Shown one piece after another: positions 437 through 31,168 of a stretch of DNA of 42,038 nt. Under the pieces are notes generated by a model, which did no database searches, had not been told where the DNA came from, and worked only from the letters and a program-made list of their open reading frames with translations. This stretch comes from Candidatus Solibacter sp. GTDB lineage: Bacteria; Acidobacteriota; Terriglobia; Bryobacterales; Bryobacteraceae. Positions within the stretch are counted from its first letter, which is position 1, and each line of letters opens with the position of its first letter. The stretch lies in contig JANYJN010000228.1 in assembly GCA_025358475.1 (NCBI GenBank), forward strand, positions 1 through 42,038, read 5' to 3'. The position numbers and the translations under genes were made by a program.

Positions 437-1237
437 TTAGGTGGTGAGCGACGTACCCGTGCCGCTCATGAACGACTTGTTCTTGTCGCCCACCCAATAG
501 CGTTCGCCTGCGATGCACCAGATAAACTGCAGTGGATCTTCTTGCGAAAACACTGGGTGGTAGTTAAACATCGGGATCGTGACCAGATCGCCTTCCTCCA
601 CGCTCCGCACGAAGCTCATGGTTTCGGGCGATTCGTAGACTTCCATGGAGCCCCGGCCTTGAATGAAGAAGTAGACCTCTTCCTGGTCGGTATGGTTGTG
701 TGGCGGCCAGGAGCGCTGGAACGGCTGGAAGAACGTGTAGCCGGCCACCAATTTGTCGGCGGGTTCGCTCACATCGAACATCATGTAGACGTCCTTGCCC
801 TTGAGATGGCGGATGCGATCCTCGCGTTTTGAGAACTCGGCAAACTTCGAGTGAAAGACCGGGTGAACGTTTTGCGCAGTCGCGGCGGTCTGAATCAGGC
901 GGGCAGGCTCGGCATCGGGATTTCGGAGCCGGAAGGCGGTACCGAGCGGAAGATACAGGGTGTCGTAATGGGCGAGGTGGTATTCGCCGCCGGTAACCTC
1001 GACGATCGCGCGGCCCTTCCACATATACAACAGCAGTTCGCAGCCCGGCGCGGAAAGCGCCTGCGACTCCGACCCGCCCGGCAAATGATACTCGCCGCAA
1101 GACAGGAATTTCAGATGCGCTTCCGTATTCATGAAGCGCTGGCGGTACACGACGGAGGACCTATCGGTTTGAAACAGCCTGCCCGGCTGTACTTGGTTAT
1201 CTCCGCTGTATTGTTTTTGAGGTGTAGTTGTGGCCAT
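437..1237 (-). CDS. KduI/IolB-family cupin sugar(-acid) isomerase
   Basis: 266-aa ORF with ATG at 1237. The cupin metal motif SWPPHNHTDQEEVYFFIQG resembles IolB PPHKH and KduI HTHERRMEVYFYF. The C-terminal FIWCIAGERYW resembles KduI FIWGMVGEN. Confidence 0.7.
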   Translation of the reverse strand: MATTTPQKQYSGDNQVQPGRLFQTDRSSVVYRQRFMNTEAHLKFLSCGEYHLPGGSESQALSAPGCELLLYMWKGRAIVEVTGGEYHLAHYDTLYLPLGTAFRLRNPDAEPARLIQTAATAQNVHPVFHSKFAEFSKREDRIRHLKGKDVYMMFDVSEPADKLVAGYTFFQPFQRSWPPHNHTDQEEVYFFIQGRGSMEVYESPETMSFVRSVEEGDLVTIPMFNYHPVFSQEDPLQFIWCIAGERYWVGDKNKSFMSGTGTSLTT

Positions 1238-1611: not shown

Positions 1612-2988
1612 TCAGAATCCGTACTGAACAAAGATATTGATCCGGTTATCGAAACCCGGCAGCAGCCCGAAATAATCGGTGCGCCAGCGTAAGTAGTCCA
1701 GCCCGATTTCCATCTTGCCCCCGAGCGTAAGCCGGTTCGCTATATAGAAAGCGCGATTGCGTGTGCGGCTACCCGCGGCCAAGTCCGCCTTCACCGGATT
1801 GTCCGTGGTGAAGCCCGGAGCCACCGACCAATATCGGTTCAGCCGAACCTTAAATTCCCCCCACCCGCCCCGCCCGCGCACAATCCGGCCCTGCGAGACC
1901 GTGAATCCCTGCCCGGCGCCGCCGCGGAAGTCACTCATGTTGCGGCCCCACCAACCTTCGCCCCGGAAGGCCAGCGCTGAGGCGACCGGCAAGGTCAGAT
2001 CGAAGTTGTACCCGTCTGCCGGGAGAACGGTGCGTCCACCGATCGGCTTCGAAACTCCCAACCAGCCGGTAAAGGTTGAAGCGCCCAATGAGAAAGCCTG
2101 GTTTGCTACCCATAGCGGGCGCGAATATCCGATGCGAGCCTGCACGTCGGGCCGCATGGACTGGATTCCGTCTGCAAAACCGTTGTTATCCAGGTCCAGC
2201 GCGTCCACCACTCCGGTGACTCCGATGGCGCCCGTGAACGAGAACTGGCCCTTGCCAACCTTCGGCTCGTAAGCCGCACGAAGCTGAGGGCGGCGGTCAC
2301 CCAGGTTGCCGGCATTCCACATCAGGGTGTCGTTATTCGTGGTGGGGATCAGTGGGGAAAAGACGTCCCAGGTCTGGCCCGCAAGCAGAGAAAAGCCCTT
2401 CCAGGTAGCCTTCACGTAAGCGTGGCGAATGCGGATGATTTGGCGCGACTCCGAGCCCCCGTTCTCAAAGTCCGTCTCCAGTTTGCCGCTGAGTTCCGCG
2501 TTGCCCAGTGAACGCAGGCGAGGACCAAGGAGGTCGATGCCAACACGGGTCAAGCGCGGATGCATTGCGAAACTCCCGCCCTGCCCGCCGGATGGCGAAG
2601 TGATGAATAGGGGCACTTGCGGGCTATTGGGCCGCTGCGTGTCGATATCCATGTCCAATCTCAACATGCCGTACACTTTGAGCCGGGCGCTATCATCGGC
2701 ACCTTCGCTCTTCTGCGGTGCGCTCGCCGGGCCGGACCCTGCCACAGCCTTTGGCGCGGGAGCGGGAACCGGAGCTTGCGCGATCCCCTGCCCCGGCTGC
2801 AAGCGCGCCTCCAGGGCCGAGAGCAATTGGGCCATGCGGCGGTTCTGTGCTTCGAGGTCCGCGACCCGCTTCTTCAACTCCTCAATCTCGACCGCGGTGG
2901 AATCCGCGCGCCCGGGTGCAGGGGCAGCGGCGGCAATGATAATCTGCGTTGCCAGCAGGACACGGCTAAATAGGAACAAAATTCGCAA
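1612..2988 (-). CDS. Outer-membrane porin with N-terminal coiled coil (beta-barrel)
   Basis: TTG start at 2988 is preceded by GAGGAG. The protein has a signal peptide, a coiled coil (VEIEELKKRVADLEAQNRRMAQLLSALEARL) and an Ala/Pro linker. An alternating beta-strand pattern follows, ending in IFVQYGF (C-terminal Phe typical of OMPs). Confidence 0.7.
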   Translation of the reverse strand: MRILFLFSRVLLATQIIIAAAAPAPGRADSTAVEIEELKKRVADLEAQNRRMAQLLSALEARLQPGQGIAQAPVPAPAPKAVAGSGPASAPQKSEGADDSARLKVYGMLRLDMDIDTQRPNSPQVPLFITSPSGGQGGSFAMHPRLTRVGIDLLGPRLRSLGNAELSGKLETDFENGGSESRQIIRIRHAYVKATWKGFSLLAGQTWDVFSPLIPTTNNDTLMWNAGNLGDRRPQLRAAYEPKVGKGQFSFTGAIGVTGVVDALDLDNNGFADGIQSMRPDVQARIGYSRPLWVANQAFSLGASTFTGWLGVSKPIGGRTVLPADGYNFDLTLPVASALAFRGEGWWGRNMSDFRGGAGQGFTVSQGRIVRGRGGWGEFKVRLNRYWSVAPGFTTDNPVKADLAAGSRTRNRAFYIANRLTLGGKMEIGLDYLRWRTDYFGLLPGFDNRINIFVQYGF

Positions 2989-3038: not shown

Positions 3039-3060
3039 GGGGCGGCGGGAAGGCCGCCCC
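3039..3060 (-). terminator. GC-rich hairpin 8 nt downstream of the transaldolase stop
   Basis: GGGGCGGC-gggaag-GCCGCCCC is a perfect 8-bp stem. The trailing sequence on the minus strand (AATCTCTGTCC) is only moderately T-rich. Confidence 0.55.
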
Positions 3061-3068: not shown

Positions 3069-3740
3069 CTAAACCGCCGCCGCCTCGAACAACCGGCTCG
3101 GAGGAACGCGTTTCCAGTCGGTGAGAAAGCTTTGCAGCCCGGCATCCGTCAACGGGTGCCGGTACAGCGCCTCAAGCATCTCAAGCGGCATGGTGCAGAC
3201 ATCGGCGCCCGCTAGCAGCGAATCCAAAACCTGCTTGACGTTACGGATGCTCGCGGCGAGGATCTTGGTTTCGAAACCATAGTTGTCGTAAATCGCGCGA
3301 ATCTGGCGGATCAGGTCGGCGCCTTCGTGGCCCACCATGTCGAGACGGTGGATGAAAGGGCTGATATAAGTGGCGCCCGCTTTCGCGGCCAGGAAGGCTT
3401 GCACCGGGCTGAAACACAGCGTGACGTTGGTCTTGATGCCTTCGCTCGACAGCACCTTTACGGCCTTGAGCCCTTCGATCATGACCGGCACTTTCACCAC
3501 CGCGTTCTTATGGAAGGCTGCGATCCGGCGGCCTTCGGCGATGATGCCCGGGGCATTCGTGCTGACCGATTCCACGCTGATCGGCCCGTCCACCAATTCG
3601 AAGATCTCGGCGAGAACGTCGTCGAACGGCTTGCCCGAATTTGCGATATGCGTGGGATTAGTGGTCACTCCGTCCACAATGCCCCACGAGTACGCTTCAC
3701 GAATCTGTACGATATCGGCAGTATCAATAAATAGTTGCAT
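3069..3740 (-). CDS. tal: Small (about 220 aa, class 3B) transaldolase of the Tal/Fsa family
   Basis: MQLFIDTADIVQIREAYSWGIVDGVTTNPT at the N-terminus; Schiff-base lysine context NAVVKVPV; TNVTLCFSPVQAFLAAKAGATYISPFIHRLD has Phe where fructose-6-P aldolases have the catalytic Tyr. GGAG RBS precedes the ATG at 3740. Confidence 0.9.
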   Translation of the reverse strand: MQLFIDTADIVQIREAYSWGIVDGVTTNPTHIANSGKPFDDVLAEIFELVDGPISVESVSTNAPGIIAEGRRIAAFHKNAVVKVPVMIEGLKAVKVLSSEGIKTNVTLCFSPVQAFLAAKAGATYISPFIHRLDMVGHEGADLIRQIRAIYDNYGFETKILAASIRNVKQVLDSLLAGADVCTMPLEMLEALYRHPLTDAGLQSFLTDWKRVPPSRLFEAAAV

Positions 3741-3761
3741 TGTATTCTCCAGAACTTCCGT

Positions 3762-5204
3762 CTAAACCTTCCAGCAGATGAGCTTCATCTCGGACATCTC
3801 TTCAGCCGCATACTTTGGACCTTCGCGGCCCATCCCACTCTCTTTCACGCCTCCGTAGGGCATGTGATCTGCGCGGAACATAGGCACGTCGTTGATGATC
3901 ACGCCACCCACTTCGAACTCCAGCGCAGCCCGGAAAGCGCGTTCCAGATCCCTGGTGAAGATCCCGGCCTGCAGACCGTAGACGCTGTCGTTCACCATGT
4001 GGATCGCATCTTCCAGTTTCTGGTAGCGGTTCACCAGCACCACCGGCCCGAAGACCTCCTGGCAGGAAATGCGGGTGGTTCGCGGCGCGTCGGCGAGGAT
4101 CGTGGGCTCGATGGTGGCGTGCTTGCGGCCGCCACCGCAAATCAGACGCGCCCCTTGGCCCTTGGCCTCGGCGATCCAGGATTCCACGCGCACCGCTTCC
4201 GCCTGGGTAATCAGCGACGAGATATCCGTCGCCTCCTCAAAGGGATGGCCGATGCGAAGCTTGCCTGTGGCTGCGGCGAACTTCGCCAGGAACTCTTCCG
4301 CGATGGAATCGTGTACGTAGATCCGCTGCACGGAAATGCACACCTGCCCGCTATGGGAGAAGCTACCCATGACGCAGCGGGCAACTGCCGTGTCGACGTC
4401 GGCATCGGGCTCGATCACCAGCGCGGAGTTGCTTCCCAATTCCAAGGTCACGCGCTTCAAGCCCGCCCTGGCGCGAATCCCAATTCCGACTTCCTTGCTG
4501 CCGGTAAAAGTAATCATCGCCACATGGGGGCTGTCCACTAAAGCGTTCCCGATCAGCGAACCCGGTCCCGTCACCACGTTGTAGGCGCCGGCCGGAGCGC
4601 CCGCCTCCTCCATTACGCGTGCGAAGCGCAACGCGCTAAGCGGCGTGGTGGTGGCCGGCTTATGAACGATGGCGTTGCCCGCCGCCAAAGCCGGAGCCAC
4701 CTTGTGCATCATCAGATTAAAGGGAACGTTGAAAGGAGTGATGGCGCCGATCACGCCCAGCGGTTCGCGCACCGTCATTGCCAGCCGGCCTTTGCCGATA
4801 GGCGCGCCGTCCATCGGAATCACTTCACCGTGGAAATTGCGCGCTACCTCGGCCGAGGCGATCATTGTCTGCAGCGTCCGCTCGGCTTCGCCGCGCGCTT
4901 CCTTCACCGGCTTGCCGGTCTCAAGGCAAATCAGCTTGGCGAAATCCGCGAGATCGCGCTTGACGATTTCCGCCATGCGAACCAGCAAATCCGCCCGCTC
5001 GAAATTGGTGAGACGCCGCATTGCCGCGGCGCCGCGCTTAGCGCCTTCTACGGCCTTCCCCACCACGGCGGAGTCTGCCATGTAGCAAGATCCCACGGGG
5101 CTTCCGTCGTACGGCAACTCGACGGTATGTAACTCCGCGGTCCGTACCCATTCCCCGCCGATGTACATCGGCAGTGTTTCTATTTCTCGCGTGCCACTAG
5201 TCAT
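3762..5204 (-). CDS. NAD(P)+-dependent aldehyde dehydrogenase
   Basis: ALDH signatures are present: PFNVPFNLMMHK, catalytic Glu in LELGSNS, catalytic Cys in GQVCIS, and YGLQAGIFT. The start is set at ATG 5204 (MTSGTREIETLPMYIGGEW), which overlaps the upstream stop as ATGACTAG. The longer ORF to 5366 would run 170 nt into the larA-like gene. Confidence 0.9.
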   Translation of the reverse strand: MTSGTREIETLPMYIGGEWVRTAELHTVELPYDGSPVGSCYMADSAVVGKAVEGAKRGAAAMRRLTNFERADLLVRMAEIVKRDLADFAKLICLETGKPVKEARGEAERTLQTMIASAEVARNFHGEVIPMDGAPIGKGRLAMTVREPLGVIGAITPFNVPFNLMMHKVAPALAAGNAIVHKPATTTPLSALRFARVMEEAGAPAGAYNVVTGPGSLIGNALVDSPHVAMITFTGSKEVGIGIRARAGLKRVTLELGSNSALVIEPDADVDTAVARCVMGSFSHSGQVCISVQRIYVHDSIAEEFLAKFAAATGKLRIGHPFEEATDISSLITQAEAVRVESWIAEAKGQGARLICGGGRKHATIEPTILADAPRTTRISCQEVFGPVVLVNRYQKLEDAIHMVNDSVYGLQAGIFTRDLERAFRAALEFEVGGVIINDVPMFRADHMPYGGVKESGMGREGPKYAAEEMSEMKLICWKV

Positions 5205-6471
5205 TTGTTTTTCTCCCGAAACCACGAAGCGCCGGCGCCGTGAATCCGGCGTGTGGCATGACCGCCACACGGCCCGGAGCCTTGCGCCGGAGCAGTTCCA
5301 ACAGGCGACTTTCATGCTGCGCGGGGTGGACCGCTTGAAATCCGCATCGCTCGACCATACGCGCATCGAGGGTCGTCACCAGGTGAACGTCATAGCGTTT
5401 GCCGAGACGCGCCAGCCAGAGCGCCTTGTGACCGCCGACCACGAAGTTTTCCCTCAACGCACTCTCCATCGCGGCGTCCGTATCGTAGGTGTTCAGATAC
5501 AGTTCCAAATTGGCGCTGCCCAGGCCGTCGCTGCATTCGGCGTAGTAGTAGAGCAATCCGCCGGGACGAAGCGCGGCGCACGCATTCTCCATGCCCTTGT
5601 GGGCCTGGCGCAGATCGATATCCAGGGGCGCTCCGCCGGCCGAGGCGATCACCACGTCGTAAAGACATTCGATTTCGGTGCGCAGCAGCCGGTCCGCGGC
5701 GCGGCAACCTTGTAGGTGCGCCTGCTCCACGTCACCCGCCGCCACATAGAGAAGTTTGCCCGCCGGGCTCAGTACCACATTGACCACGAAATCCGGCCCG
5801 GCCATGCGCGAGCCTTCCAGCATATCTTCGTGTGCGGGGTTCCCGTCCAATACGCCCGCGCGGCAGCGGGGATCGAGCACCATCCGGTGGTTGAACGTCG
5901 TAGTGCGGTTGCCGGCCACCCCGGGGACGAGACTCTTGCGCCCTCCGCTGTAGCCGGCGATTTGATGAAAGATGATCTCGCCGGTGAGGATGATCCGGTC
6001 CGCCTCATACACCCTGCGATTGATCTGCACCCGGTTGCCGAAGCTCGTCGTGCCTACCTCCACCAGATTCGCCTCGTCGTCGCCGTCGTGATCGTAAAGC
6101 CGGATGCGGCGGAAAATCTCCTCCCCCACGATGGCGCGCTGCTCCGCCTCATTTTGCGGCCGGTGCGTACCCAGCGCGAACACGATAAAGATGTCCGCAT
6201 CCGGAATTCCACCGTAGTTCAGCGTGTTCACGATTGGCGGCAGGAACATGTCCGAGCGTGCGAGCCTCGTAATGTCATTCACGATGATGGCCACCGTCTC
6301 GCCCGCCTTCACCAGGCTGGCAAGCGGACCACAGCCCACCGGATGCTCCAACGCGTAAAGAATAGCCCCCGCTTCATCATCCAGCAGCGGAGCCATTGGT
6401 GGAGTGAGCGGATCGGCTTCGACAGCCAACCGGAAACTTGTATTGCCGAACGGCAACGATAGTGGAAGCAT
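5197..6471 (-). CDS. LarA-family (DUF2088) nickel-pincer-dependent 2-hydroxyacid racemase/epimerase homologue
   Basis: Conserved LarA blocks are ALGTHRPQ, GEIIFHQIAGYSGGRKSLVPG (His plus the cofactor-tethering Lys) and TTFNHR (Ni-ligand His). The start is probably ATG 6471 (MLPLSLPFGNTSFRL, like the LarA N-terminus); upstream in-frame starts at 6501 and 6576 cannot be excluded. Confidence 0.85.
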   Translation of the reverse strand: MLPLSLPFGNTSFRLAVEADPLTPPMAPLLDDEAGAILYALEHPVGCGPLASLVKAGETVAIIVNDITRLARSDMFLPPIVNTLNYGGIPDADIFIVFALGTHRPQNEAEQRAIVGEEIFRRIRLYDHDGDDEANLVEVGTTSFGNRVQINRRVYEADRIILTGEIIFHQIAGYSGGRKSLVPGVAGNRTTTFNHRMVLDPRCRAGVLDGNPAHEDMLEGSRMAGPDFVVNVVLSPAGKLLYVAAGDVEQAHLQGCRAADRLLRTEIECLYDVVIASAGGAPLDIDLRQAHKGMENACAALRPGGLLYYYAECSDGLGSANLELYLNTYDTDAAMESALRENFVVGGHKALWLARLGKRYDVHLVTTLDARMVERCGFQAVHPAQHESRLLELLRRKAPGRVAVMPHAGFTAPALRGFGRKTND

Positions 6472-6601: not shown

Positions 6602-7919
6602 ATACGACATGCCCGCTGCCGTTCCGTCGCTGAAATCCATACCCGGCATGCCGCCGCTCATCCGGCAGGTTCGCTGGTGGGTGATGGCGCTGCTGTTGTG
6701 CATCACGATCATCAACTTTGTTGACCGGCAATCCCTCTCTATTGTCGCGCCATTACTCCGCGAATCGCTGAAGCTGAGCAACACCGATTATGGAATCATC
6801 GTAGCCGCTTTCCAGATGGGAATGATGATGGGCGAGTTTCCGATGGGTTCGCTGATGGACCGCTTCGGAGTGAAATTTGGCTTCACGCTGGCGGTCTCAT
6901 GGTGGTCGCTGGCGAACGCATTGCATGCCGTTGCCCGTACCATGCTGCATTTCAGCGTGCTGAGGTTCTGGCTGGGCACCGGGGAATGCGGCAATTTCTC
7001 CGGAGGCATGAAAACGGTGTCGGAGTGGTTTCCGGTGCGGGAGCGGGCCCTTGCGATTGGGATCTTCAACGGCGGCTCCATGATAGGCTCCATCATCGCT
7101 CCGCCGCTGTTGGTTGTGCTGACGTTGAAATTCGGTTGGCACGCGGCATTTCTGTTGCCCAGCGCCTTGGGCTTTGTGTGGGTATTCGCCTGGCGCAAAT
7201 GGTATCGCAGCCCGGAAGATCACCCCTCGATGTCCGCTGTTGAGCGCGCTTATATTATCGACGGACGCGAATCCACCACGGACCAGCCCGCGCCCAGCAA
7301 TAGAGAGTTGTTGAAGTTGCGGCAGACGTGGGCCCTGATGGGCTGCCGGATGCTGGTTGGGCCCGTGGTCCAGTTTTATATCTATTGGCTGCCTGAATAC
7401 CTGTACCGGCAGCGCGGCCTCTCGCTCAAGGAAATCGGCTTGTTCGCGTGGGTGCCTTTCCTGTTCGGCGACATCGGTAGCATCGGTGGCGGCTGGCTGG
7501 CCGGACGGCTGCTCCGGCGCGGTTTCAGCGTCACCGATACCCGGCGGATCACCATGGGCATCGGCGCGGTATGCTGCCTGCTCAGTTTCGCCGTAGTGGG
7601 AGCGCGAACCATTCCGGTGGCGCTGGCGGGAATTTGCTTCGTGCTGCTCGGGCACACCTTCCTCTCCGCCAATATGTTTGCCGCTATCTCCGACGTGTTC
7701 CCCACCAGTGCGGTGGGGCGCGTCACGGCACTCACCGGAATCGCCGGCGGCCTGAGCGGGATGATCTTTCCCCTGCTCACGGGCATTCTGGTGGATCACT
7801 TTTCGTACCTGCCGGTCTTCAGCCTGGCAGCCGTGATGCCCATGGCGGGAAGCATACTCCTGTTTGCCATGGTCCGGAGCCTGCGTCAGGTTTCGCTCGG
7901 CAAGGAGAAAAACTTGTGA
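6597..7919 (+). CDS. MFS transporter, anion:cation symporter (ExuT/hexuronate-galactonate-like) subfamily
   Basis: Twelve-TMS-like profile with VMALLLCITIINFVDRQSLSIVAPLL, RFWLGTGECGNFSGG and WFPVRERALAIGIFNGG. The start is uncertain: ATG 6597 lies inside the promoter-like motif, so ATG 6609 or 6648 is more likely. Confidence 0.85.
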   Translation: MLYDMPAAVPSLKSIPGMPPLIRQVRWWVMALLLCITIINFVDRQSLSIVAPLLRESLKLSNTDYGIIVAAFQMGMMMGEFPMGSLMDRFGVKFGFTLAVSWWSLANALHAVARTMLHFSVLRFWLGTGECGNFSGGMKTVSEWFPVRERALAIGIFNGGSMIGSIIAPPLLVVLTLKFGWHAAFLLPSALGFVWVFAWRKWYRSPEDHPSMSAVERAYIIDGRESTTDQPAPSNRELLKLRQTWALMGCRMLVGPVVQFYIYWLPEYLYRQRGLSLKEIGLFAWVPFLFGDIGSIGGGWLAGRLLRRGFSVTDTRRITMGIGAVCCLLSFAVVGARTIPVALAGICFVLLGHTFLSANMFAAISDVFPTSAVGRVTALTGIAGGLSGMIFPLLTGILVDHFSYLPVFSLAAVMPMAGSILLFAMVRSLRQVSLGKEKNL

Positions 7920-8842
7920 GTTTAAGCTTTCGTGATATCGCGTTCGAACACTGGCAGGACTGCTGTCTGGTGTCGAATGGCTGCATGGAAATGGTGGTGC
8001 CCCGCAGCTTCGGCCCGCGCGTGATGCGCTGCGGTTTTACCGGCGGGGAGAATCTGTTCAAGATCTTTCCCGACGAAGGGCCCGGCGTGCGCGTTCGTGG
8101 TGGCCACCGCCTCTGGGTGGCACCCGAGCGGAAAGAGGTCACCTGGGTATTGGACAACGACCCGGTTGAGTTTGCCACCCTCGAGAACGGGCTGCACGTG
8201 ACAGGGGCGCTGGAGTCCTCCACGGGGCTACAGAAAGAAATGACCATCCATTTCGGTCCCTGCCCGAACGAAGTCGAAATCGTGCACCGCATCGTGAATC
8301 GCAACGTATGGGCGATCGAACTTGCACCGTGGACGCTCACTCAGGCAGCACCCGGTGGGATCGCGCTTTCGGGCTTCCCGCCCCGCGGCAAACACCCGGA
8401 AATGCTGCTGCCCACCCACCCGCTGGTCATGTGGGCGTACACCAAGCTGGGGGACCCGAGGTGGACCTGGGGCGAGCGATTCTTCGCGCTCCGGCAGGAT
8501 CCGGAAGCCGCCGAGCCTCAGAAGATCGGACTTTTCCATGAGCACGCCTGGACGGCTTACCTCCTCGGCAACGAAATCTTCTTCAAATACTCGAAAGCCG
8601 ATCCCACGCGCAGCTACCCGGACTTCGGCTGCTCGGTCGAGATCTTCACGAACCGCTTCATGATGGAGTTGGAAACACTCGGGCCGCTCGGCAAGCTGCA
8701 GCCGGGTGAATCGATCGAGCACACGGAGCGCTGGATCCTGCTTCGCGACGTGAAGCTTCCGGATCTTTCCGACGCCAGTATTGCAAAGGCGTTACAGCCC
8801 GCGCTCGAACGCGTTCTTAGTCTTCAGGAGCAAATTTCATGA
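7916..8842 (+). CDS. Conserved hypothetical protein, possibly mutarotase-like (DUF4380-like) fold
   Basis: GTG 7916 overlaps the MFS stop (GTGA). It reads VSLSFRDIAFEHW...GGHRLWVAPE...ELETLGPLGKLQPGESIEHTERW. The stop overlaps the next start (ATGA at 8839-8842). The long upstream extension of the ORF is inside the MFS gene. Confidence 0.6.
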   Translation: MSLSFRDIAFEHWQDCCLVSNGCMEMVVPRSFGPRVMRCGFTGGENLFKIFPDEGPGVRVRGGHRLWVAPERKEVTWVLDNDPVEFATLENGLHVTGALESSTGLQKEMTIHFGPCPNEVEIVHRIVNRNVWAIELAPWTLTQAAPGGIALSGFPPRGKHPEMLLPTHPLVMWAYTKLGDPRWTWGERFFALRQDPEAAEPQKIGLFHEHAWTAYLLGNEIFFKYSKADPTRSYPDFGCSVEIFTNRFMMELETLGPLGKLQPGESIEHTERWILLRDVKLPDLSDASIAKALQPALERVLSLQEQIS

Positions 8843-9699
8843 GCATCTCTCTTAGCCGCCGCGAACTGATTGCCCTCGTTCCAGCCAGCCTGCTGGCGTT
8901 TAAATCCGAGCTGCGAATGGGATGCCAGACAAACTCCTGGCCCATCGACCCGAAAAAGCTTTCCTCCTTCGCATCCGTACTCGACAAGATGAAGGCGTTC
9001 GGTTTTCAGGGATTCGAAACCAGTTTCCGGAATGTACAGGAACACTCCGGTGAGCCCGGCGAAGTGCGCTCGATGATCGCCAAATCCGGGCAGCGCTTCC
9101 TCGGGGTCCACATTTTCCTGCTCGCATACGATCCGACGTCCCACGTGGCGCCGGCAGATCTGTATCGCAAGGTGGTGGACGGGGCCGCTCCGATGGGCGC
9201 CGAGCGCCTCATCCTGAGTGGCTCCCCCGCCACTACCGACGGCGTTCTGGATCATGCCGCCATCCAGCGCAAGTGTGCGGCGCTCAATGCCGCGGCCGCC
9301 TACGCCAAGTCAAAGGGAATGCGCTTCGCTTATCACAACCATGGGCCGGAGTTTGCCAACGGAGCCGTTGAGATGGAAGCTTTGTACGCTGGCAGCGATC
9401 CCAATCTGGTGCACTTCATTTTCGATACCGGCCATGCCCGGCGCGCCAAGGCAGACGTACCGGCGTTTCTCCTAAAGCATCACTCGCGCATCGACGGTAT
9501 ACACTTGCGCGACCTCAGTGACCGTCCCGGTGACAACCCGGATTTGGGGGCGTTCGACCTGAAGGGGCTCGCCGCCGCCATCGATAAAGTGAAATGGAGC
9601 GGTTGGCTGATCGTCGAGGAAGAGAACGCCATCGGCAAGGCCGGCGACGATGCCGTCCGCCCTGCCCGCGAGGCGTTGCGCGCGCAATTCGGTATCTAA
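8839..9699 (+). CDS. Exported sugar-phosphate isomerase/epimerase (xylose-isomerase-like TIM barrel)
   Basis: Tat-like signal SRRELIALVPASLLA; AP_endonuc_2-type blocks YHNHGPEF, FDTGHA, IHLRD and WSGWLIVEEE; AGGAG RBS. Confidence 0.8.
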   Translation: MSISLSRRELIALVPASLLAFKSELRMGCQTNSWPIDPKKLSSFASVLDKMKAFGFQGFETSFRNVQEHSGEPGEVRSMIAKSGQRFLGVHIFLLAYDPTSHVAPADLYRKVVDGAAPMGAERLILSGSPATTDGVLDHAAIQRKCAALNAAAAYAKSKGMRFAYHNHGPEFANGAVEMEALYAGSDPNLVHFIFDTGHARRAKADVPAFLLKHHSRIDGIHLRDLSDRPGDNPDLGAFDLKGLAAAIDKVKWSGWLIVEEENAIGKAGDDAVRPAREALRAQFGI

Positions 9700-9709: not shown

Positions 9710-10741
9710 TCAAAACCCCTCTGGCGTGATCCAGAAACTTTCCTTCCACTCCCCGCCGGGCGGGATGCTCTGCAGACTTTTGTAGAGTCCGCGTTGCGCC
9801 AGATTGAAGGCGTTGGTGATCGCGGTCATCGGCTCCAGACATACTGCTTCCTTTCCCGGCGGCATAAAGGCGACCGCCACTGGATACTTGGGTCCGAAAG
9901 CGACGCTGATCTTTTCCCGCTTTCCTTTCACCCAGAACACCGCCCGGCCATCCGGACCCCGGTCCAGATCGGTAAGGATATCGTCCATCTGCACCGTGGC
10001 GAGCGCCTGCGGGTCCGCGTATTCCGTGTGCTTCATTTCGCCGGTTGGCACCATGTGGTCATTGAGGAGTACGTGCTGGCGCGCCGGAATGTGGACGCTC
10101 CACTCCGCCCGCGGCGAGTCATGCAAATTGAAGAACGGATGAAAGCCGATGCTGACCGGCATGGGGCTGAAAGAGTGATTTTCGATGTGCGTCTCCACTT
10201 CAAGGACACCTTTGGTGAGCCGGTGGGTCATGGTGATGGTGTGTGCGAAAGGAAACTGCGCCATCATGTCGGGGTACCTCCAGAACTCCAGGCGGCTAAC
10301 CGAGCGCGCCGAGTCTGCGTCCGCTTCAACTGAAACCAGTTTCCACGCAGAGGAAAAATAGAGCATGCCGTGGATAGACTGGCCGAACTGATCCCTCCGC
10401 AGGTTGTCGAGGCTGGGGTTCAGAATATACTTGCGGCCATTGGCCCAGTAGGCGTCCTCGTCGAGGCGATTGGCCCACGGCCCCAGGAACGGAATCGCGC
10501 AGGGGGTAAGATTCGCTTTCCACTGCGCCAGTCCCGCGAACGGAAAGTAGAGCACGTTCATTCTGTTGACCTTCATCTCGTACGCGATATTGCCGATCGA
10601 AGGCGCGATGGAGACTTGGGTGTTGCGCTCCGCATCGAACAGGCGCACAACCTCGATTCCCTCCACAACCGTCTTCCTGGCGGAATAATTCGCACCTTGA
10701 GCCGCCAAGGGCAGGATCATCATGGCTATCGCGATCTTCAT
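9710..10741 (-). CDS. Exported aldose 1-epimerase (galactose mutarotase family)
   Basis: Signal peptide MKIAIAMMILPLAAQG; mutarotase blocks IPFLGPWANRL, HGMLY, GFHPFF and CLEPMT. Confidence 0.8.
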   Translation of the reverse strand: MKIAIAMMILPLAAQGANYSARKTVVEGIEVVRLFDAERNTQVSIAPSIGNIAYEMKVNRMNVLYFPFAGLAQWKANLTPCAIPFLGPWANRLDEDAYWANGRKYILNPSLDNLRRDQFGQSIHGMLYFSSAWKLVSVEADADSARSVSRLEFWRYPDMMAQFPFAHTITMTHRLTKGVLEVETHIENHSFSPMPVSIGFHPFFNLHDSPRAEWSVHIPARQHVLLNDHMVPTGEMKHTEYADPQALATVQMDDILTDLDRGPDGRAVFWVKGKREKISVAFGPKYPVAVAFMPPGKEAVCLEPMTAITNAFNLAQRGLYKSLQSIPPGGEWKESFWITPEGF

Positions 10742-10768
10742 CTGTCAACCCTCATGGACCAAAAACGT

Positions 10769-10780
10769 AATATATCATAT
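10769..10780 (-). promoter_or_regulatory. Extended -10-like element (TG-a-TATATT) upstream of the mutarotase gene
   Basis: The minus strand reads GCATATGATATATTACG, followed by 27 nt including GAGGG, then ATG 10741. Confidence 0.35.
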
Positions 10781-10789
10781 GCCAACAAC

Positions 10790-11749
10790 TCAGACGCTGA
10801 TCCATCTTCTCCAGATAAAGAACAACGTCGTTGCCGCGACGACAACCCATAGCGCCAGACCCTGCGCGAAGGGCCGCCAGCCCACCCGCTTCAGTCCCTC
10901 CCGTGAGAGTCCCGCGCCGATAAGGAACAATGTCACCGAAAAGCCGGTGCGCGCCACGGCGACGATACCGCGGCTGAGCCCGTCTGCCTGCGGCCAGGAA
11001 GAGTGCAGCCATGCCGCCGCCACAAACAGGCCGATGAACCAGGGCCAGGCCTTCTTGCCGCGGTTTCGGAACCAAGCCGCCACGAGGACCGACACCGGAA
11101 CGATCCAGAGCGCCCGGACCAGTTTGACAGTAGTCCCCACGGCAAGCGCCACTGGGCCGTATCTGAGGCCTGCTCCCACCACGGAGCTGGTATCGTGAAT
11201 GGCAAGCGCCGCCCAGAGCCCGAATTGTCTTTGCGTGAGACCCACGGCTGCACCGATCACTGGGAAAGTGACCAGCGCGACGGAGTTCAGCACGAATATG
11301 GTCGTCAGCGATACGGCCGTCTCTTCCTCGCTCGCATCGACAATCGAGCGCGTTGCGGCGATCGCACTGCCGCCACAGATGGAAGTCCCGACGGAGATTA
11401 GAAAGGCGGAATTGAAAGGCACGCGCAGAAGGCGTCCAAAGAAAAGCCCGAGCCCGATCGCCGCGGCAATTCCGAAACCGGTGTAGACATAACTCGTGCG
11501 CCCCGTCTCCAGCACGGCGTGAATGTCCATGCCGAAACCCAAGCCGACGATGCTCCACTTCAGCAACTCGCGCGTCCACCACGACGATGCCGCGCGCCAT
11601 GGATTCGCCCCGGCAATCCCGATTGCCAGACCTAGCGCCAGAGCAAGAGGAGGGGAACACCACGGAGAGCAGCACAGCAGAACGGCACAGAGGAAAGCTA
11701 CCTTGGTAAGCACAATCCCAGTTTGCGGGCGCGGCAGGTGGGCGTCCAA
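10790..11749 (-). CDS. COG2855/UPF0324 (YeiH, SuyZ/TauZ-type) membrane protein, 'putative sulfate exporter' family
   Basis: Polytopic membrane protein with the family block GTSICGGSAIAA and AIHDTSSVVGAG. The ORF begins with TTG at 11749; the true start is uncertain. Confidence 0.75.
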   Translation of the reverse strand: MDAHLPRPQTGIVLTKVAFLCAVLLCCSPWCSPPLALALGLAIGIAGANPWRAASSWWTRELLKWSIVGLGFGMDIHAVLETGRTSYVYTGFGIAAAIGLGLFFGRLLRVPFNSAFLISVGTSICGGSAIAATRSIVDASEEETAVSLTTIFVLNSVALVTFPVIGAAVGLTQRQFGLWAALAIHDTSSVVGAGLRYGPVALAVGTTVKLVRALWIVPVSVLVAAWFRNRGKKAWPWFIGLFVAAAWLHSSWPQADGLSRGIVAVARTGFSVTLFLIGAGLSREGLKRVGWRPFAQGLALWVVVAATTLFFIWRRWISV

Positions 11750-11789
11750 TCACATTTTGTGATCGCGGATTTCCTCGGCTTATGCAGCG

Positions 11790-12651: not shown

Positions 12652-13821
12652 TTATGCCGGCAGGTCGTTCCAGTTCAAGACGCGATGCTCGCGTAAGGAC
12701 TTCTCGGCAAGCAGGATGATCTTGACGGTCGTCTTGGCGGATTCGGGGCCCACCAGAGGCGGTTTGCCCAATCGCAGGCTCTGTGCAAACAATTGATATT
12801 GCTTATAGGTCTCGGGATCCTGGGCCGAGCCCACGGCTTTTCCGACGACCGACTTGGGCGTGTCGTCCACCACGTCCACGTAGCGCACCCCGCCACCGCC
12901 GTGCTTGCGGATTGCAATTTTGCCGTTCTCAGGGTACATCACGCCTTCGCTGCCGATCACCACGAGGCGCCTGCTTGACGGGCCCGCATTCGCCGCGAAC
13001 AGACACAATTCGAAGCTCAACTTCACACCCGAAGCGTATTCGACAATGGCAGCCACGTGATCGACTGTTTCGCGATCTTTATAAACGTTATTACCGCCGG
13101 ACGCGGTGACCCGCACCACCCGGTCGTCGATCATCCAATTGGCGCAGTCGATCTCGTGAACGCCGTCTTCGAGCAGAGCGCTGCCCTCGGTGTACGTGAG
13201 ATAGCGCCAGTTGGTGGCGATGCCGGTCTTGGGGTTCTTGTATTTCCAACTCTTCGGGTTCCAGTCGCCGCGGAAGAGATTACCGCTGACGAACTCGATC
13301 TTGCCTATTTCACCGGCGGCAACCAGATCCCGCATCTTGTTGGTCGCCGGGACCAGGCGCTTTTGGAATCCGATGTACAGGAGCTTGCCGGATTTGCGCG
13401 ACGCCTCGATCATGAGATTGGCATCGTCGATCGTGGTGGCCATCGGCTTTTCGCAGAGTACCGGCAGACCGCGCTCGAACGCGGCCACCGTCACTTCGGC
13501 GTGCAAAAAGCTGGGAGTGATCACCACAACTGCGTCGATATCGTGCCGTTCCGCCAGCAACTTGCGGTAATCCGCGTAGGTTTTGGCACCGGGAGCCAGG
13601 GTAGCCGCACGATCCAGGTTCTCCGGCGTTGGATCGGCCAGCGCTACCACCTGAAAACCGGGTAGAGATTGTAGGATCGCCAAGTGGGCCCATGCCCGGT
13701 ACCCGGTTCCTATGATCGCCAGTCGGATTGGTTTCTCACTCTGCGCCTCGAGCGCGGAGGCCCCCGAAATGATCGCGGACGCCCCCGCCGCCACCAGGAA
13801 TGACCGTCGGTTCGTTTCCAT
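12652..13821 (-). CDS. Tat-exported Gfo/Idh/MocA-family oxidoreductase
   Basis: ATG 13821 is preceded by AGGAGAAAGAG. It has the twin-arginine signal METNRRSFLVAAGASAI, the Rossmann motif LAIIGTGYRAWAHL, and CEKPMA. Confidence 0.85.
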   Translation of the reverse strand: METNRRSFLVAAGASAIISGASALEAQSEKPIRLAIIGTGYRAWAHLAILQSLPGFQVVALADPTPENLDRAATLAPGAKTYADYRKLLAERHDIDAVVVITPSFLHAEVTVAAFERGLPVLCEKPMATTIDDANLMIEASRKSGKLLYIGFQKRLVPATNKMRDLVAAGEIGKIEFVSGNLFRGDWNPKSWKYKNPKTGIATNWRYLTYTEGSALLEDGVHEIDCANWMIDDRVVRVTASGGNNVYKDRETVDHVAAIVEYASGVKLSFELCLFAANAGPSSRRLVVIGSEGVMYPENGKIAIRKHGGGGVRYVDVVDDTPKSVVGKAVGSAQDPETYKQYQLFAQSLRLGKPPLVGPESAKTTVKIILLAEKSLREHRVLNWNDLPA

Positions 13822-13875
13822 TTCTCTTTCTCCTAACGTTTCAAGTATTGGTTCCCACCGGACTGTTGAAGTGCC

Positions 13876-13901
13876 GGGTCGAAGTGCCACCATTTCGACC
13901 C
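13876..13901 (-). terminator. Hairpin between the TIM-barrel and Gfo genes (terminator or processing/attenuation structure)
   Basis: GGGTCGAA-gtgccaccat-TTCGACCC is a perfect 8-bp stem, but no U-tract follows on the minus strand. Confidence 0.3.
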
Positions 13902-13962
13902 GTAAGACTACGCACTGTATAACAGCGGCCGTGAATCCTCAGTTAACCGGGCCGCCCGAGTT

Positions 13963-14823
13963 TCAGACGCCGAAAAGTTTGCGGATGTACTCGCGATCCG
14001 GCCCAACCGCCGCCGTATTGCCGCCCTGCGGGCTACCGCCCTCTTCATCAATGAGCCAACCCGACCAACCGGTTTTCTTCACCGCGGCGGCGAGCGCCTG
14101 GAAATCGAAGTCGCCCTGGCCAAGCGGAACCTGGCCGCTAACCTGCTTGCCGCGGAACGTCTTCAGATGAATTCCATAGATCCGCTTCGAGTTTACAGCT
14201 AGGAAAGCGGCTGGATTACCACCGCCCAGGTATCCGTGTCCGGCATCCATGAGGAAGTTGACCAGAGCGGGATCGGTATTCTCGGCAAGTCCGTCCATTT
14301 CCGCGTTGTGGTTGGCGAACTCCGGGTTGTGGTTGTGATAGGCGAGGCGCAGCCGGTTCTCCTTGAGCATGCGGCCGATCTTGTCCAATTCCTTGGCTTT
14401 CTGCAACAGGGCCTCTTTCTCAAACGCGCCCTCCGCCGACAGACCCTTGCCGCTCATAATGATGCAGTCCGCTCCGAGGGCTGCCACACCGGCGGCAATG
14501 CCCGCACCCTTGGCGCCGCCGACGATGTCCATTCCGGCATGTGCCCCGATGAACGTCATTCCGGTTTTTTCGATCTGCCCGCGCGCGGCCGCGACGCGGC
14601 CGAACTCGCCTTCTACCAGCTTGTAATTACATTCAAAGCCGGTGTAGCCCAAGCTCTTCATCGATTCCAGCACCTTCAGCAGGCCTGGAAAGTCACCCGG
14701 CTTGAGCGGAAAGCCATTGGCTTGACATCCCACCCGAATGGATCCGCTTTTCGCCCATGCGCAAGCGGCCGAAACAGCGGAAGCGGCCACAAGAAATGTC
14801 CGGCGCGAAGTTAGATACGGCAT
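13963..14823 (-). CDS. Tat-exported sugar-phosphate isomerase/epimerase (xylose-isomerase-like TIM barrel)
   Basis: Signal SRRTFLVAASAVSAACAWA; blocks YHNHNPEF, MDAGHG, IHLK and WSGWLIDEEGG. Confidence 0.8.
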   Translation of the reverse strand: MPYLTSRRTFLVAASAVSAACAWAKSGSIRVGCQANGFPLKPGDFPGLLKVLESMKSLGYTGFECNYKLVEGEFGRVAAARGQIEKTGMTFIGAHAGMDIVGGAKGAGIAAGVAALGADCIIMSGKGLSAEGAFEKEALLQKAKELDKIGRMLKENRLRLAYHNHNPEFANHNAEMDGLAENTDPALVNFLMDAGHGYLGGGNPAAFLAVNSKRIYGIHLKTFRGKQVSGQVPLGQGDFDFQALAAAVKKTGWSGWLIDEEGGSPQGGNTAAVGPDREYIRKLFGV

Positions 14824-14840
14824 AATGTCTCCTCGAAACT

Positions 14841-17800: not shown

Positions 17801-18302
17801 CTGTGTCCACAATACCGGGTACCGTCAAGAGGAACGAAGCAAAGTCGCGCCCTTTCACGGCGATTTCGGCAATCTGGGCTCCCGTGACAACGCCCGACCT
17901 CTCGCCGCTCGCTACCTGCACCGGCGTGCCTTGCGCCTCAACCGTCACGCTTTCCACCAGACCGCCCAGTTCCAGCGTGAGCTTTCCGACGCTGCGCACT
18001 TCGCTTGCGGTCAGAACCAGATCGCGAACTAACAGCCTCTTAAAACCATCGGCCTGCACGGTCAGATCGTAAGTTCCTGGTGCAAGGTTGGGGATGACAA
18101 AGGAACCATCCGCTTCCGTGGCAAAGTTCCTCGACACTCCTCTCGCCTGATCGACGAGCGTGCCTTTGCCGCCAGGCACCGTCGCTCCGCTGGAATCCAC
18201 CGCGGTTCCGCTCACAGTGCTGTAGATATTCTGACCAAAAGCCATCGAGGCCGCCAGCAAGAAGCAACCGACAACCATCACACTAACCGTCACACTTCGC
18301 AT
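14841..18302 (-). CDS. TonB-dependent outer-membrane receptor with N-terminal carboxypeptidase-regulatory-like domain
   Basis: Start set at ATG 18302 (MRSVTVSVMVVGCFLLAASMAFGQ signal). It has a CarboxypepD_reg-like segment (SGTAVDSSGATVPG...GSFVIPNLAPGTYDLTV), a plug region, and a huge barrel ending in LSLRLAF. Confidence 0.85.
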   Translation of the reverse strand: MRSVTVSVMVVGCFLLAASMAFGQNIYSTVSGTAVDSSGATVPGGKGTLVDQARGVSRNFATEADGSFVIPNLAPGTYDLTVQADGFKRLLVRDLVLTASEVRSVGKLTLELGGLVESVTVEAQGTPVQVASGERSGVVTGAQIAEIAVKGRDFASFLLTVPGIVDTASQGREAMARNALAGIHINGGRDSSVLMMVDGMPSLDAGNNGVPGEPNMDAIAEVKVMTSNYQAEYGRNAGGMITVITKSGSKDFHGSAYEYYRHESLDAANYFDNRTGTAKAPYRYRITGFSVGGPVLLPRTNFNRQKDKLFFFFSQELVGSKNNWSPQFINVPTQLERNGDYSKSYDVAGAQIPVKDPATGLVFPGNMIPKDRINKLGQAMLNFLPLPNYTDPDPAYVYRRNYRTVPSGSWPRRQEVFRADYNITSKFQVFYRLLEDSNKLLLQTGSGGWPAGGVNYMLTPVMWDRPSRAQAVHATNVFSPTLVNEVTFTRAFNNVITYPTDPSVLDRSLMGNPAQWFKHDQPNANWIPALTFGGTPVNTANTSLNVNIPDALPDPGYTLTESLSKVWKSHSLKVGFYVERNNKIQSASTQIHGAFNFARDTNNPLDTGHGYANALIGNFQSYSEANNQPKGDYMFWDYEWYVQDNWRVTSKLTLDYGLRFYHTPPTIDRGGAVATFVPGLYDPSKAPVLYIPARDAANKRVAKNPLTGALAPSPMIGLFVPNSGDFANGSRAAGNGVPLGLYSTSWLEFGPRFGFGYDVFGTGKTAIRGGFGVFKDKVTGNTLYNSAGNPPITSTPTLYYGTLDTYAQNPGSTGPSDITVLSGNQPMPTVMNYSLSIQHQVSNTMFDLAYVGSLARHLSVQRNINAIPMFARFDPKNADPTQTSTPLQDNFLRPYRGYGNINQREFTGTSNYHALQVSASRRFSKGVQFGASYTWSKILTVSSGDTGGLSSYFPTRSWNYGPANFNQPQTLVLNYMYEVPKVGTMTGFKPAKWVLDNWQISGITSFLSGSPFTPGFSLVDGLDTTGSTDGARITVTGDPRLDKSQKTFSRTFNTGVFSRTPRGSFGNAGLGLLYGPGVNNWDLAISKRFRLFSEGRYLQFRTELFNAFNHTQFSGLNSTARFDKNGVQTDPLFGAYTSAYKPRNIQLSLRLAF

Positions 18303-18345
18303 TTCACGCCTTTCAACAAAGTACACGACGAACCTATCTTGGTCG

Positions 18346-20632: not shown

Positions 20633-20913
20633 CGTTTCGTCTTGACATTATGCACGTGCAGATGCTCGCCCACCTGGATCGGCGCAACGGTCCGCCCGAT
20701 GTCCACTCCGTACTTGATCACGGTGGCGCCATTCGCCAAGGCTTTGATCGCGAGTTTGTGCCCGATCGGAATATCGTTCAAGGCTTTGAAATTCACGATC
20801 TTGTCCTGGTCCATGATCCATCCGGAGAGCATGTCCTGTGCTTTGACGTCTTCCACGACAATAACCCCAACCGAGTCCCCTTCGTCATGAACCACAAAAT
20901 GAATTTTTTCCAT
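20626..20913 (-). CDS. UxaA-family small subunit (SAF domain only, 95 aa); SuyA-like candidate
   Basis: The SAF-domain pattern [15 protein letters not shown]...[22 protein letters not shown] corresponds to the N-terminus of single-chain UxaA. A strong RBS (GGAAAGGAG) precedes ATG 20913. Confidence 0.8.
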
Positions 20914-31159: not shown

Positions 31160-31168
31160 ACCATTGCC

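Follow-up and report, generated by a model that had tools for sequence, protein, structure and literature searches.

Introduction

How could a bacterium that dismantles a sulfosugar turn the (S)-3-sulfolactate it would form into the (R)-enantiomer cleaved by the sulfo-lyase SuyAB? The question is raised by a 42,038-nucleotide stretch of DNA from Candidatus Solibacter sp. (contig JANYJN010000228.1 of assembly GCA_025358475.1; the whole 42-kb stretch is called the window below), which holds an operon for a homologue of the nickel-pincer nucleotide (NPN)-dependent racemase LarA, an aldehyde dehydrogenase (ALDH) and a short transaldolase (Tal), together with a SuyAB lyase and a dsr locus. The original prediction, made from the sequence of the window, was that the LarA homologue could racemise sulfolactate directly and so supply SuyAB. 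This central claim is supported by orthology of the lyase to SuyAB, by recurrent co-location of the genes in related genomes, by loci that hold no ComC or SlcC, and by a GHK motif in the substrate pocket of the LarA homologue, which is probably an NPN-dependent 3-sulfolactate racemase working within a complete pathway from sulfosugar to sulfite.

Some 10 billion tonnes of sulfoquinovose are produced each year. The C3 sulfonates formed in sulfoglycolysis have the (S) configuration while SuyAB acts on (R)-sulfolactate, so an S-to-R inversion is needed, and reviews state that it is required before SuyAB; the only sulfolactate inversion described is that by the SlcC/ComC dehydrogenase pair. According to the reviews a genome seldom inherits desulfonation together with sulfoglycolysis, the C3 products being passed to secondary degraders, and two 2026 reviews of sulfoquinovose catabolism mention no racemase of the LarA kind. 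In full-text searches of the literature, no paper was found in which LarA or lactate racemase is connected with sulfolactate, sulfoquinovose or SuyAB.

Results and discussion

The genes in question are three on the minus strand, closely packed as an operon and followed by a hairpin:

6471 to 5197, minus strand: LarA homologue, 424 amino acids
3762 to 5204, minus strand: ALDH of NAD(P)+ type, 480 amino acids, with Glu255 and Cys289 (Pfam Aldedh, 1.4e-156), translationally coupled to the LarA gene
3069 to 3740, minus strand: short transaldolase, 223 amino acids, with Lys83 (in VVKVPV), Phe129 (in ISPFIHRLD) and an Arg132/Ser164/Arg166 anion site
3039 to 3060, minus strand: G+C hairpin after tal with a 9-bp stem (GGGGCGGCC/GGCCGCCCC; -25.1 kcal/mol, z = -3.3 against shuffles) and no U tract

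The TAG of the LarA homologue (5199-5197) overlaps the ATG of the ALDH (5204-5202) inside ATGACTAG (5197-5204), and 21 nt separate the ALDH stop (3764-3762) from the tal ATG (3740). The original prediction had described this tight packing, the stop/start overlap, the spacer and the hairpin, as well as GTHR, FHQIAGYSGGRKS and FNHR blocks in the LarA homologue and the Lys and Phe contexts of the transaldolase, and all of these were confirmed in the sequence. As the hairpin has no U tract it is not a canonical intrinsic terminator, and is a possible end of the operon. The database gene call for the LarA homologue is a longer open reading frame (ORF) from 6576 (459 amino acids). Position 6471 appears the likelier start because homologues are 421-428 residues long, with alignment beginning at residue 1-6 of the 424-residue version, and because a promoter-like site (6510-6482) lies ahead of it. 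The LarA-ALDH-Tal order recurs in relatives (loci L001/L011 and L013) at a LarA identity of 73-81%, and the arrangement is therefore more than chance. The closest homologues are found in metagenome-assembled genomes (MAGs) of Bryobacteraceae/Solibacteraceae, and the window looks acidobacterial.

Judged by domain architecture and modelled fold, the LarA homologue is a member of the LarA superfamily. Its matches to Pfam Lar_N (1.4e-64, 217.6 bits) and LarA_C (1e-11, 45.5 bits) both exceed the gathering scores, and an AlphaFold 2 model (mean per-residue confidence, pLDDT, 84) gives template modelling (TM) scores of 0.86-0.89 to LarA-family structures (0.89 to LarA_Ip 9eid, 0.87 to 5huq), and only 0.67, at 17% identity, to GntE2 (4nar). 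The best match among solved structures is the malate racemase (MAR) Mar2 (284 bits, 38% identity), with 35% identity to Sar. The protein nevertheless scores below every curated NCBIfam equivalog cut-off: 394 bits against 540 for LarAH10, the best match, 391 against 500 for MAR LarAH6, 317 against 462 for MAR LarAH5, 280 against 460 for the lactate racemase LarA (NF033504) and 23.7 against 500 for the putative hexonate epimerase LarAH18 (NF052594), with no GntE (LarAH19/20) model among its NCBIfam matches. Clear orthology to the gluconate 2-epimerase or lactate racemase groups, which the original prediction had named as evidence against itself, is thus not seen in these scores.

Residues were mapped by alignment to Lactobacillus plantarum LarA (LarA_Lp), Sar and Mar2, and their conservation was scored across 88 members of the clade to which the window protein belongs. 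The catalytic residues His103 (in GTHR) and His169 correspond to His108 and His174 of LarA_Lp, the cofactor tether Lys179 to Lys184 and the nickel ligand His195 (in FNHR) to His200, His169 and Lys179 both lying in the FHQIAGYSGGRKS block. Asp66/Arg69 likewise match Asp72/Arg75, and Gln289/Lys292 match Gln295/Lys298. Each of these catalytic and cofactor residues is kept in at least 87 of the 88 members.

The lyase and a possible sulfite sink

The window also holds the genes that would act on the product of such a racemase:

19436 to 20632, minus strand: SuyB, large subunit of (2R)-3-sulfolactate sulfo-lyase, 398 amino acids, GD_AH domain
20626 to 20913, minus strand: SuyA, small SAF-domain subunit, 95 amino acids, overlapping suyB; SAF and TIGR03248 N-terminal matches weak
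25756 to 38996, minus strand: dsr locus with dsrA, dsrB, dsrC, dsrMK, dsrOP, dsrN and a second dsrMK

Window SuyB is 76% identical to SuyB of Cupriavidus pinatubonensis, which lies in an hpsN-hpsO-MFS-hpsP-suyAB cluster (MFS, major facilitator superfamily), and 65% identical to SuyB of Paracoccus versutus, in a GntR-suyA-suyB-sulfate-exporter cluster; suy genes are classically found in these two settings, hpsNOP-suyAB and GntR-suyAB-exporter. Identity does not exceed 39% for any other plasmid match of the UxaA family, and GarD of the E. coli type reaches just 113 bits. The small subunit is 55% identical to SuyA of C. pinatubonensis and 51% to that of P. versutus. The lyase, introduced in the original prediction as 'SuyAB-like', is thus a SuyAB orthologue as far as sequence can tell, which removes the main prop of the null hypothesis of a plain sugar-acid dehydratase. 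The same gap, between 65-76% identity to SuyB of the hps/suy clusters and no more than 39% elsewhere, led us to reject a generic altronate/galactarate dehydratase for this gene.

The inversion ahead of SuyAB has no apparent dehydrogenase shuttle here. The original prediction had called for a search for slcC/comC, and no ComC/SlcC-type (Ldh_2, NAD_binding_2) or HpsN gene was found in the window, nor any ComC-like or HpsN gene in 90 acidobacterial loci. The sulfite released by SuyAB could be consumed by the dsr locus, which was found as foreseen, in the same window (matches to Pfam NIR_SIR twice, DsrC, NrfD, Nitrate_red_gam, CCG and CobB/CobQ-like), and which we propose as its sink. Neither sat nor aprAB is present in the window, as would suit an organism that reduces sulfite only, in the manner of the peat Acidobacteria SbA4/SbA5, where suyAB was reported beside dsr and slcC/comC was invoked, for SbA5 only (Hausmann et al. 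2018).

The dsr locus has further features of its own. Its dsrMK is duplicated, it includes a dsrN-like amidase, and a 348-residue protein with Fer4_20, NAD-binding and ferredoxin domains and an RsbRD_N-domain protein are encoded between dsrB/dsrC and dsrM.

Gene neighbourhoods across the clade

The clade was scanned with one genome per GTDB species, giving 80 loci with LarA identities of 51-81%, and neighbours within 10 kb were counted by tblastn with the window proteins and proteins from informative loci. The 80 loci are nearly all from Bryobacterales/Terriglobia and include the peat MAGs SbA3 and SbA4 (L039). In 32 of them the gene immediately downstream of LarA encodes an ALDH orthologue (58-85% identity); among the 67 loci whose flank is long enough the count is 31. 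SuyB at 60% identity or more is present in 12/80 and SuyA in 14/80, a divergent SuyB type in 2/80 and a sulfite-oxidase-family protein in 8/80, so that at least one gene that produces or consumes sulfite stands within range in 19 of the 80; SuyZ-like exporters are near LarA in L038, L043, L045 and L059. Two sugar-splitting modules accompany the clade. In one, Tal orthologues (67-90%, 8/80 loci) are joined by a KduI-like cupin wherever the contig extends several kb beyond, the cupin (59-82%) itself occurring in 12/80; the other combines an SftI-like isomerase (3/80) with a phosphofructokinase (PFK)-like kinase (7/80) and an aldolase.

The order of these genes is repeatedly rearranged. L024 reads LarA-ALDH-Tal-MFS-KduI-SuyA-SuyB on one strand, L007/L059 read LarA-ALDH-SuyA-SuyB-x-AP_endo-KduI with GntR, MFS and Tal in addition, L015 reads GntR-LarA-SuyA-SuyB and L010 LarA-ALDH-SuyA-SuyB. 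L076 has suyA-suyB, a SorA-type sulfite dehydrogenase (552 bits to NF052245), a small ORF, then LarA-ALDH-GntR, and beside LarA an SftI-like isomerase (best NCBIfam match sulfoquinovose isomerase SftI), a pyrophosphate-dependent (PPi)-PFK-type kinase and a DhnA-type aldolase, a module that looks like a sulfo-Embden-Meyerhof-Parnas-like route in place of Tal/KduI and an undescribed acidobacterial variant. In the closest relative (L001/L011, 81% LarA identity) dsr-type genes once more border the sugar cluster (GntR first, followed by genes for Fe-S, NrfD/cytochrome and DsrN-like proteins), its orientation relative to them reversed. That linkage of such rare genes is kept through rearrangement and across two sugar-splitting modules argues for one shared pathway, in which the constant part would lead from an aldehyde to a 2-hydroxy acid and then, by way of racemisation and SuyAB, to sulfite.

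Several other arrangements were noted. In L076 the SorA-type dehydrogenase between suyB and LarA, and the SftI-like/DhnA/PPi-PFK set beside it, belong to the intervals 8048-9694 and 13917-17683. A second, divergent SuyAB-like pair replaces the orthologue in the Tal/KduI clusters L007 (10799-12294), L036 and L059 (12661-14168); its SuyB is 36-41% identical to those of the window, C. pinatubonensis and Paracoccus, and a 195-224-residue protein with no recorded Pfam match always comes after it. In L003/L017 (11278-18002) a 65%-identical LarA is followed by another ALDH (35% to that of the window) with no lyase in range, and an SftI-like isomerase (72% to that of L076), an SSF transporter and a GH2 glycosidase are also present.

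A separate LarA clade is also found next to SuyAB. LarAH5/Mar1 of Desulfitobacterium hafniense was reported to racemise malate with a Km of 55 mM, its authors doubting malate as native substrate, and a COG2721 'altronate dehydratase' is recorded in 19 of 19 group-5 neighbourhoods (Desguin et al. 2020, Table S1). In the Desulfitobacterium/Desulfosporosinus loci (L094 6492-9287; L095 6349-9260) the order is SAF-GD_AH-LarAH5-TctCAB-GntR-Ldh_2. Window SuyB and SuyB of C. pinatubonensis each share 61% identity with the GD_AH protein. With just 31.5% identity to the LarA homologue of the window, LarAH5 belongs to a separate clade; two separate LarA clades are therefore tied to SuyAB. D. hafniense is reported in a review to respire sulfolactate, and Mar1 may be a mis-assigned sulfolactate racemase.

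These Firmicutes loci, with SuyAB, LarAH5 and TctCAB, look like sulfolactate-uptake units, and many acidobacterial loci (L010, L015, L063, L067, L075) hold only LarA, ALDH and SuyAB with a transporter and regulator and no sugar-splitting genes. Such loci would suit a scavenging racemase, dispensable to the pathway and there to exploit both enantiomers of sulfolactate from the environment or from 2,3-dihydroxypropane-1-sulfonate (DHPS) and independent of sulfoquinovose. We think this improbable given that the window and at least ten other loci embed the gene with Tal/KduI or SftI-like/PFK/aldolase modules; it is in any case less a competitor than a variant of the main reading, as the enzyme activity would be identical.

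The substrate pocket

Specificity in the LarA family is predicted in the literature from four positions, LarA F175, F176, W358 and T359. In the clade these are Gln/Leu170, Ile171, His348 and Lys349, the window protein having Gln170-Ile171 where the Mar2 loop has Tyr172-Lys173. Gly347-His348-Lys349 forms the 'GHK' motif, the published signature of malate racemases (H/Q-K at LarA W358/T359), which marks these and 'closely related substrates' and whose Lys is proposed to bind a second anionic group. Arg288, present in 88/88 clade members, takes the place of Tyr294 in the Lp, Tt, Ip, Sar and Mar2 enzymes and is a possible sulfonate ligand. His291 is clade-specific, the equivalent being Gln (Gln293) in Mar2 and Val in LarA. 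The pocket has neither the Phe175/Phe176/Trp358 hydrophobic set of lactate racemases nor the GntE signature E/V/A/H. Sulfolactate has a sulfonate where malate has its second carboxylate, and it therefore fits a GHK pocket of MAR type that occurs in a sulfonate context.

A MAR-like pocket could also be read at face value, as that of a racemase of malate (or a tartrate-type dicarboxylate) like Mar2/LarAH6 in a sulfonate neighbourhood that is incidental, as the GHK signature, the 391-bit score to the MAR LarAH6 model and the position of Mar2 as best solved-structure match would suggest. It is nonetheless unlikely: both MAR equivalog cut-offs are missed, Tyr172-Lys173, Gln293 and the conserved Tyr of Mar2 give way to Gln/Leu-Ile, His291 and Arg288, there is no malic enzyme or malate transporter nearby and no apparent transaldolase/ALDH route to malate, and it would be hard to account for a linkage to SuyAB, SorA and dsr genes that recurs in rearranged form.

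Rather less favoured still is a racemase of lactate or glycerate, serving acids derived from lactaldehyde or glyceraldehyde that the transaldolase would release from (6-deoxy)hexoses without a sulfonate, for example quinovose, rhamnose or fucose. LarA-type lactate racemases are known from the literature also to racemise glycerate, alpha-L-fucosidase and 2-keto-3-deoxy-6-phosphogluconate (KDPG) aldolase genes lie near the L010 locus, and the best NCBIfam and PDB matches of the ALDH include lactaldehyde dehydrogenase, the NCBIfam model at 513 bits against a cut-off of 650. The pocket, however, is cationic and polar (His348, Lys349, Arg288, His291) where a lactate racemase would have Phe-Phe-Trp, the cut-off of the lactate racemase model is missed (280 of 460 bits), the adjoining transporter is of anion type, a SuyAB orthologue has no role for lactate, and sulfite dehydrogenases and dsr are adjacent. 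Least probable of all is an enzyme that epimerises a longer sugar acid (gluconate/mannonate-type or sulfogluconate) at C2 and feeds a UxaA-type dehydratase, the 'plain sugar-acid' null, for although LarAH10, the best NCBIfam match at 394 bits, also epimerises gluconate and mannonate, and the GFO/IDH/MocA, AP_endonuc_2 and KduI-like genes of the window resemble uronate/inositol pathways, the hexonate epimerase model gives just 24 bits, the pocket lacks the E/V/A/H signature, the 'dehydratase' is a SuyB orthologue, and the cluster has no sugar-acid kinase and no 2-keto-3-deoxygluconate (KDG) or KDPG aldolase.

The proposed pathway

The sulfolactate racemase would be one step in a route whose substrates, together with the racemase activity and the roles of the transaldolase and KduI-like protein, we infer from the gene set. 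An anionic sulfosugar, most likely sulfoquinovose or a glycoside of it, would enter via a TonB-type receptor or porin and then an anion-type MFS transporter, and would be isomerised to 6-deoxy-6-sulfofructose by a KduI-like cupin:

437 to 1237, minus strand: KduI/IolB-family bicupin (Pfam KduI, 3e-12)

The short transaldolase would then move C1-C3 to glyceraldehyde-3-phosphate, giving fructose-6-phosphate and (S)-3-sulfolactaldehyde, which the coupled ALDH would oxidise to (S)-3-sulfolactate. The LarA homologue would transfer the C2 hydride onto NPN, forming sulfopyruvate transiently with His103/His169 as acid/base, and return it on the other face to give (R)-3-sulfolactate, which SuyAB would split into pyruvate and sulfite. 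The sulfite would be respired by the adjacent Dsr system or, in relatives, oxidised instead by the SorA-type sulfite dehydrogenase.

KduI and IolB belong to a family with aldose-ketose isomerisation of anionic sugars, and the cupin is a candidate isomerase of sulfoquinovose to sulfofructose. It would be a third, undescribed type of sulfoquinovose isomerase, the window having no YihS-type or SftI-type gene. Pfam and NCBIfam searches of the 42-kb window likewise found neither SftI nor a GH31 (SftG) gene.

The transaldolase belongs to TAL_FSA (Pfam, 1.1e-56; TIGR00875 at 280 bits, above the cut-off of 246) and its active site is fully canonical. Phe versus Tyr is the transferase/aldolase switch in the Tal/FSA family, and with Phe129 the protein appears to be of transferase type, a candidate sulfofructose transaldolase. 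In a comparison with PDB structures it is closer to the housekeeping Tals of Thermoplasma acidophilum and Thermotoga maritima (247 bits, T. acidophilum) than to the sulfofructose transaldolase of Bacillus megaterium (BmSF-TAL, 159 bits), scores by which orthology to BmSF-TAL was rejected.

The ALDH is a candidate sulfolactaldehyde dehydrogenase. Its match to PDB 8c54, an entry deposited under the name succinate semialdehyde dehydrogenase and probably the GabD-type sulfolactaldehyde dehydrogenase of Rhizobium leguminosarum, reaches 289 bits, and many other ALDHs are just as close.

Several observations weigh against this reading. The best family match of the ALDH is lactaldehyde dehydrogenase, the transaldolase is nearer to housekeeping Tals than to BmSF-TAL, and a KduI-like cupin as candidate sulfoquinovose isomerase is one of the weaker parts of the scheme. 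The window has no recognisable sulfoquinovosidase of the GH31 or GH188 type, and SuyAB stands 13 kb from the LarA operon with other genes between. Published GHK signature rules would name the LarA homologue a malate racemase. Arg288 replaces a Tyr294 that hydrogen-bonds the substrate 2-OH, and in LarA_Ip the Y294A variant lost the cofactor, so that the replacement is a caveat for cofactor retention. Family searches found no larB, larC or larE in the window, as the original prediction had cautioned together with the missing sulfoquinovosidase and recognisable sulfoquinovose isomerase. On the supporting side, 1.55 Mb of related loci yielded a bona fide LarC (L055), at 227 bits to TIGR00299 where the cut-off is 90, and a single LarE (L083), at 312 bits to TIGR00268 where it is 150. 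Both lie less than 10 kb from a member of the clade. Bryobacteraceae have LarC homologues in great number, although the genome of the closest relative is not among the best 120 LarC matches. Finally, about 40% of the clade loci have no sulfonate-related gene within 10 kb, so some members may act otherwise or have unlinked partners.

Other genes of the window

The remaining genes include further transport and sugar-related functions:

1612 to 2988, minus strand: DcaP-like outer-membrane porin (weak Pfam DcaP match), whose orthologue adjoins LarA in L012
6597 to 7919, plus strand: MFS transporter of anion:cation symporter type (D-galactonate transporter subfamily), divergent from the LarA gene
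7919 to 8842, plus strand: TTE1925-family-like mutarotase (NF052227, 267 bits, below the cut-off of 550)
8839 to 9699, plus strand: xylose-isomerase-like TIM barrel (AP_endonuc_2, IolE-like), from family searches
9710 to 10741, minus strand: aldose 1-epimerase with N-terminal signal peptide (periplasmic mutarotase), from family searches
12652 to 13893, minus strand: GFO/IDH/MocA oxidoreductase with a twin-arginine (Tat) signal (RRSFL); best PDB matches DgpA and related 3-oxidoreductases
13963 to 14823, minus strand: second AP_endonuc_2 TIM-barrel protein, from a family search
14841 to 18326, minus strand: TonB-dependent-type outer-membrane receptor, from a family search
24993 to 25694, minus strand: GntR/FCD regulator, whose orthologues flank the LarA gene in many loci

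Also present are a short-chain dehydrogenase/reductase in the group with the aldose 1-epimerase and the GFO/IDH/MocA protein, and a LysR regulator and another receptor in that with SuyA/SuyB and GntR. The MFS transporter, kept beside LarA in L001, L012, L014, L024, L059 and L073, is a candidate sulfosugar importer. The ORF at 10752-11753 (minus strand) encodes 333 residues with an Arg-rich, low-complexity N-terminus, no family match and one weak homologue (44%, L012); it may be mis-called or have a later start.

Two GFO/IDH/MocA and AP_endonuc_2 pairs are found in the window (12652-14823, minus strand; 8839-9699, plus strand; 39101-41169, minus strand). From its PDB matches the GFO/IDH/MocA protein at 12652-13893 is possibly a periplasmic glycoside 3-oxidoreductase, and the Tat-signal GFO/IDH/MocA and AP_endonuc_2 proteins may carry out a periplasmic oxidative glycoside cleavage in place of sulfoquinovosidase. 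The former was rejected as the NAD+-dependent sulfoquinovosidase SqgA (GH188) on the sulfonate triad Arg166/Lys172 (with the Leu170 backbone) and Tyr136, since relative to 8qc2 it has Lys for Arg166, Ile for Lys172 and Gln for Tyr136, and an 11-residue insertion. An inositol-like pathway, formed of GFO, IolE-like, IolB-like and ALDH proteins, was likewise rejected: there is no IolD, IolC or IolJ, and LarA, SuyAB and Tal would be left unexplained.

Significance

The comparative genomics is strong and supports, at the level of sequence, a new substrate class and pathway role for the known LarA superfamily, in which a sulfonated substrate would be the first. If correct, one organism would degrade the plant sulfosugar sulfoquinovose fully to pyruvate and respirable sulfite, and widespread Acidobacteriota of soil and peat, including dsr-carrying sulfite reducers, would have a direct part in the turnover of plant sulfolipids and in the cryptic sulfur cycle. 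The gene would serve as a marker for complete sulfosugar mineralisation, and the poor malate kinetics of 'Mar1' would be accounted for. The hypothesis can be tested directly, as LarBCE co-expression systems and chiral sulfolactate already exist. A broader view, that at least two unrelated LarA clades, the acidobacterial one and Firmicutes LarAH5, act as dedicated sulfolactate racemases, a general solution to the S/R problem, and that the window encodes a full route from sulfoquinovose glycosides to pyruvate, fructose-6-phosphate and respired sulfite with a KduI-type isomerase and an oxidative replacement for sulfoquinovosidase, is possible and is put forward tentatively.

Comparison with known systems

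SbA4/SbA5 belong to the same lineage as the window and share with it SuyAB supplying sulfite to Dsr, SbA4 also having a clade member (L039); however, Hausmann et al. 2018 drew no link from sulfolactate supply to a sugar pathway or a LarA homologue. The sulfo-TAL (sulfo-SFT) pathway of Bacillus megaterium and Eubacterium rectale likewise has a Tal/FSA transaldolase and an aldehyde enzyme near an isomerase, a transporter and mutarotases, but the window Tal is nearer to housekeeping enzymes, a KduI-type bicupin stands where SftI would be and GH31 SftG is absent. In the proposed window route, moreover, the C3 sulfonate would not be excreted but desulfonated in the same cell by LarA and SuyAB, and the sulfite respired.

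Mar2/LarAH6 of Thermoanaerobacterium thermosaccharolyticum (6D6Z) has the LarA fold in common with the window protein, with all catalytic and NPN-binding residues and the GHK motif in helix 14, and its substrate is a 2-hydroxy acid with a four-atom backbone and a second anionic group. It differs in sequence (38% identity), in its Tyr-Lys loop versus Gln/Leu-Ile, in Gln293 versus His291 and in Tyr versus Arg288, and the window context is one of ALDH, SuyAB and sulfite enzymes, not malate metabolism, the proposed substrate being a sulfonate, not a carboxylate. Mar1 (Dhaf_4417), also of the LarA superfamily with a GHK motif and SuyAB neighbours, probably has the same physiological role as the window protein, although it was published as a malate racemase and sits with TctCAB and Ldh_2, with no ALDH or sugar module. 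SlcC/ComC of Chromohalobacter salexigens achieves the same net conversion of (S)- to (R)-3-sulfolactate via sulfopyruvate, feeding SuyAB, with two NAD(P)-dependent dehydrogenases, free sulfopyruvate and free nicotinamide cofactors, whereas the LarA route would use a single enzyme and a tethered nickel-pincer cofactor with no net redox exchange.

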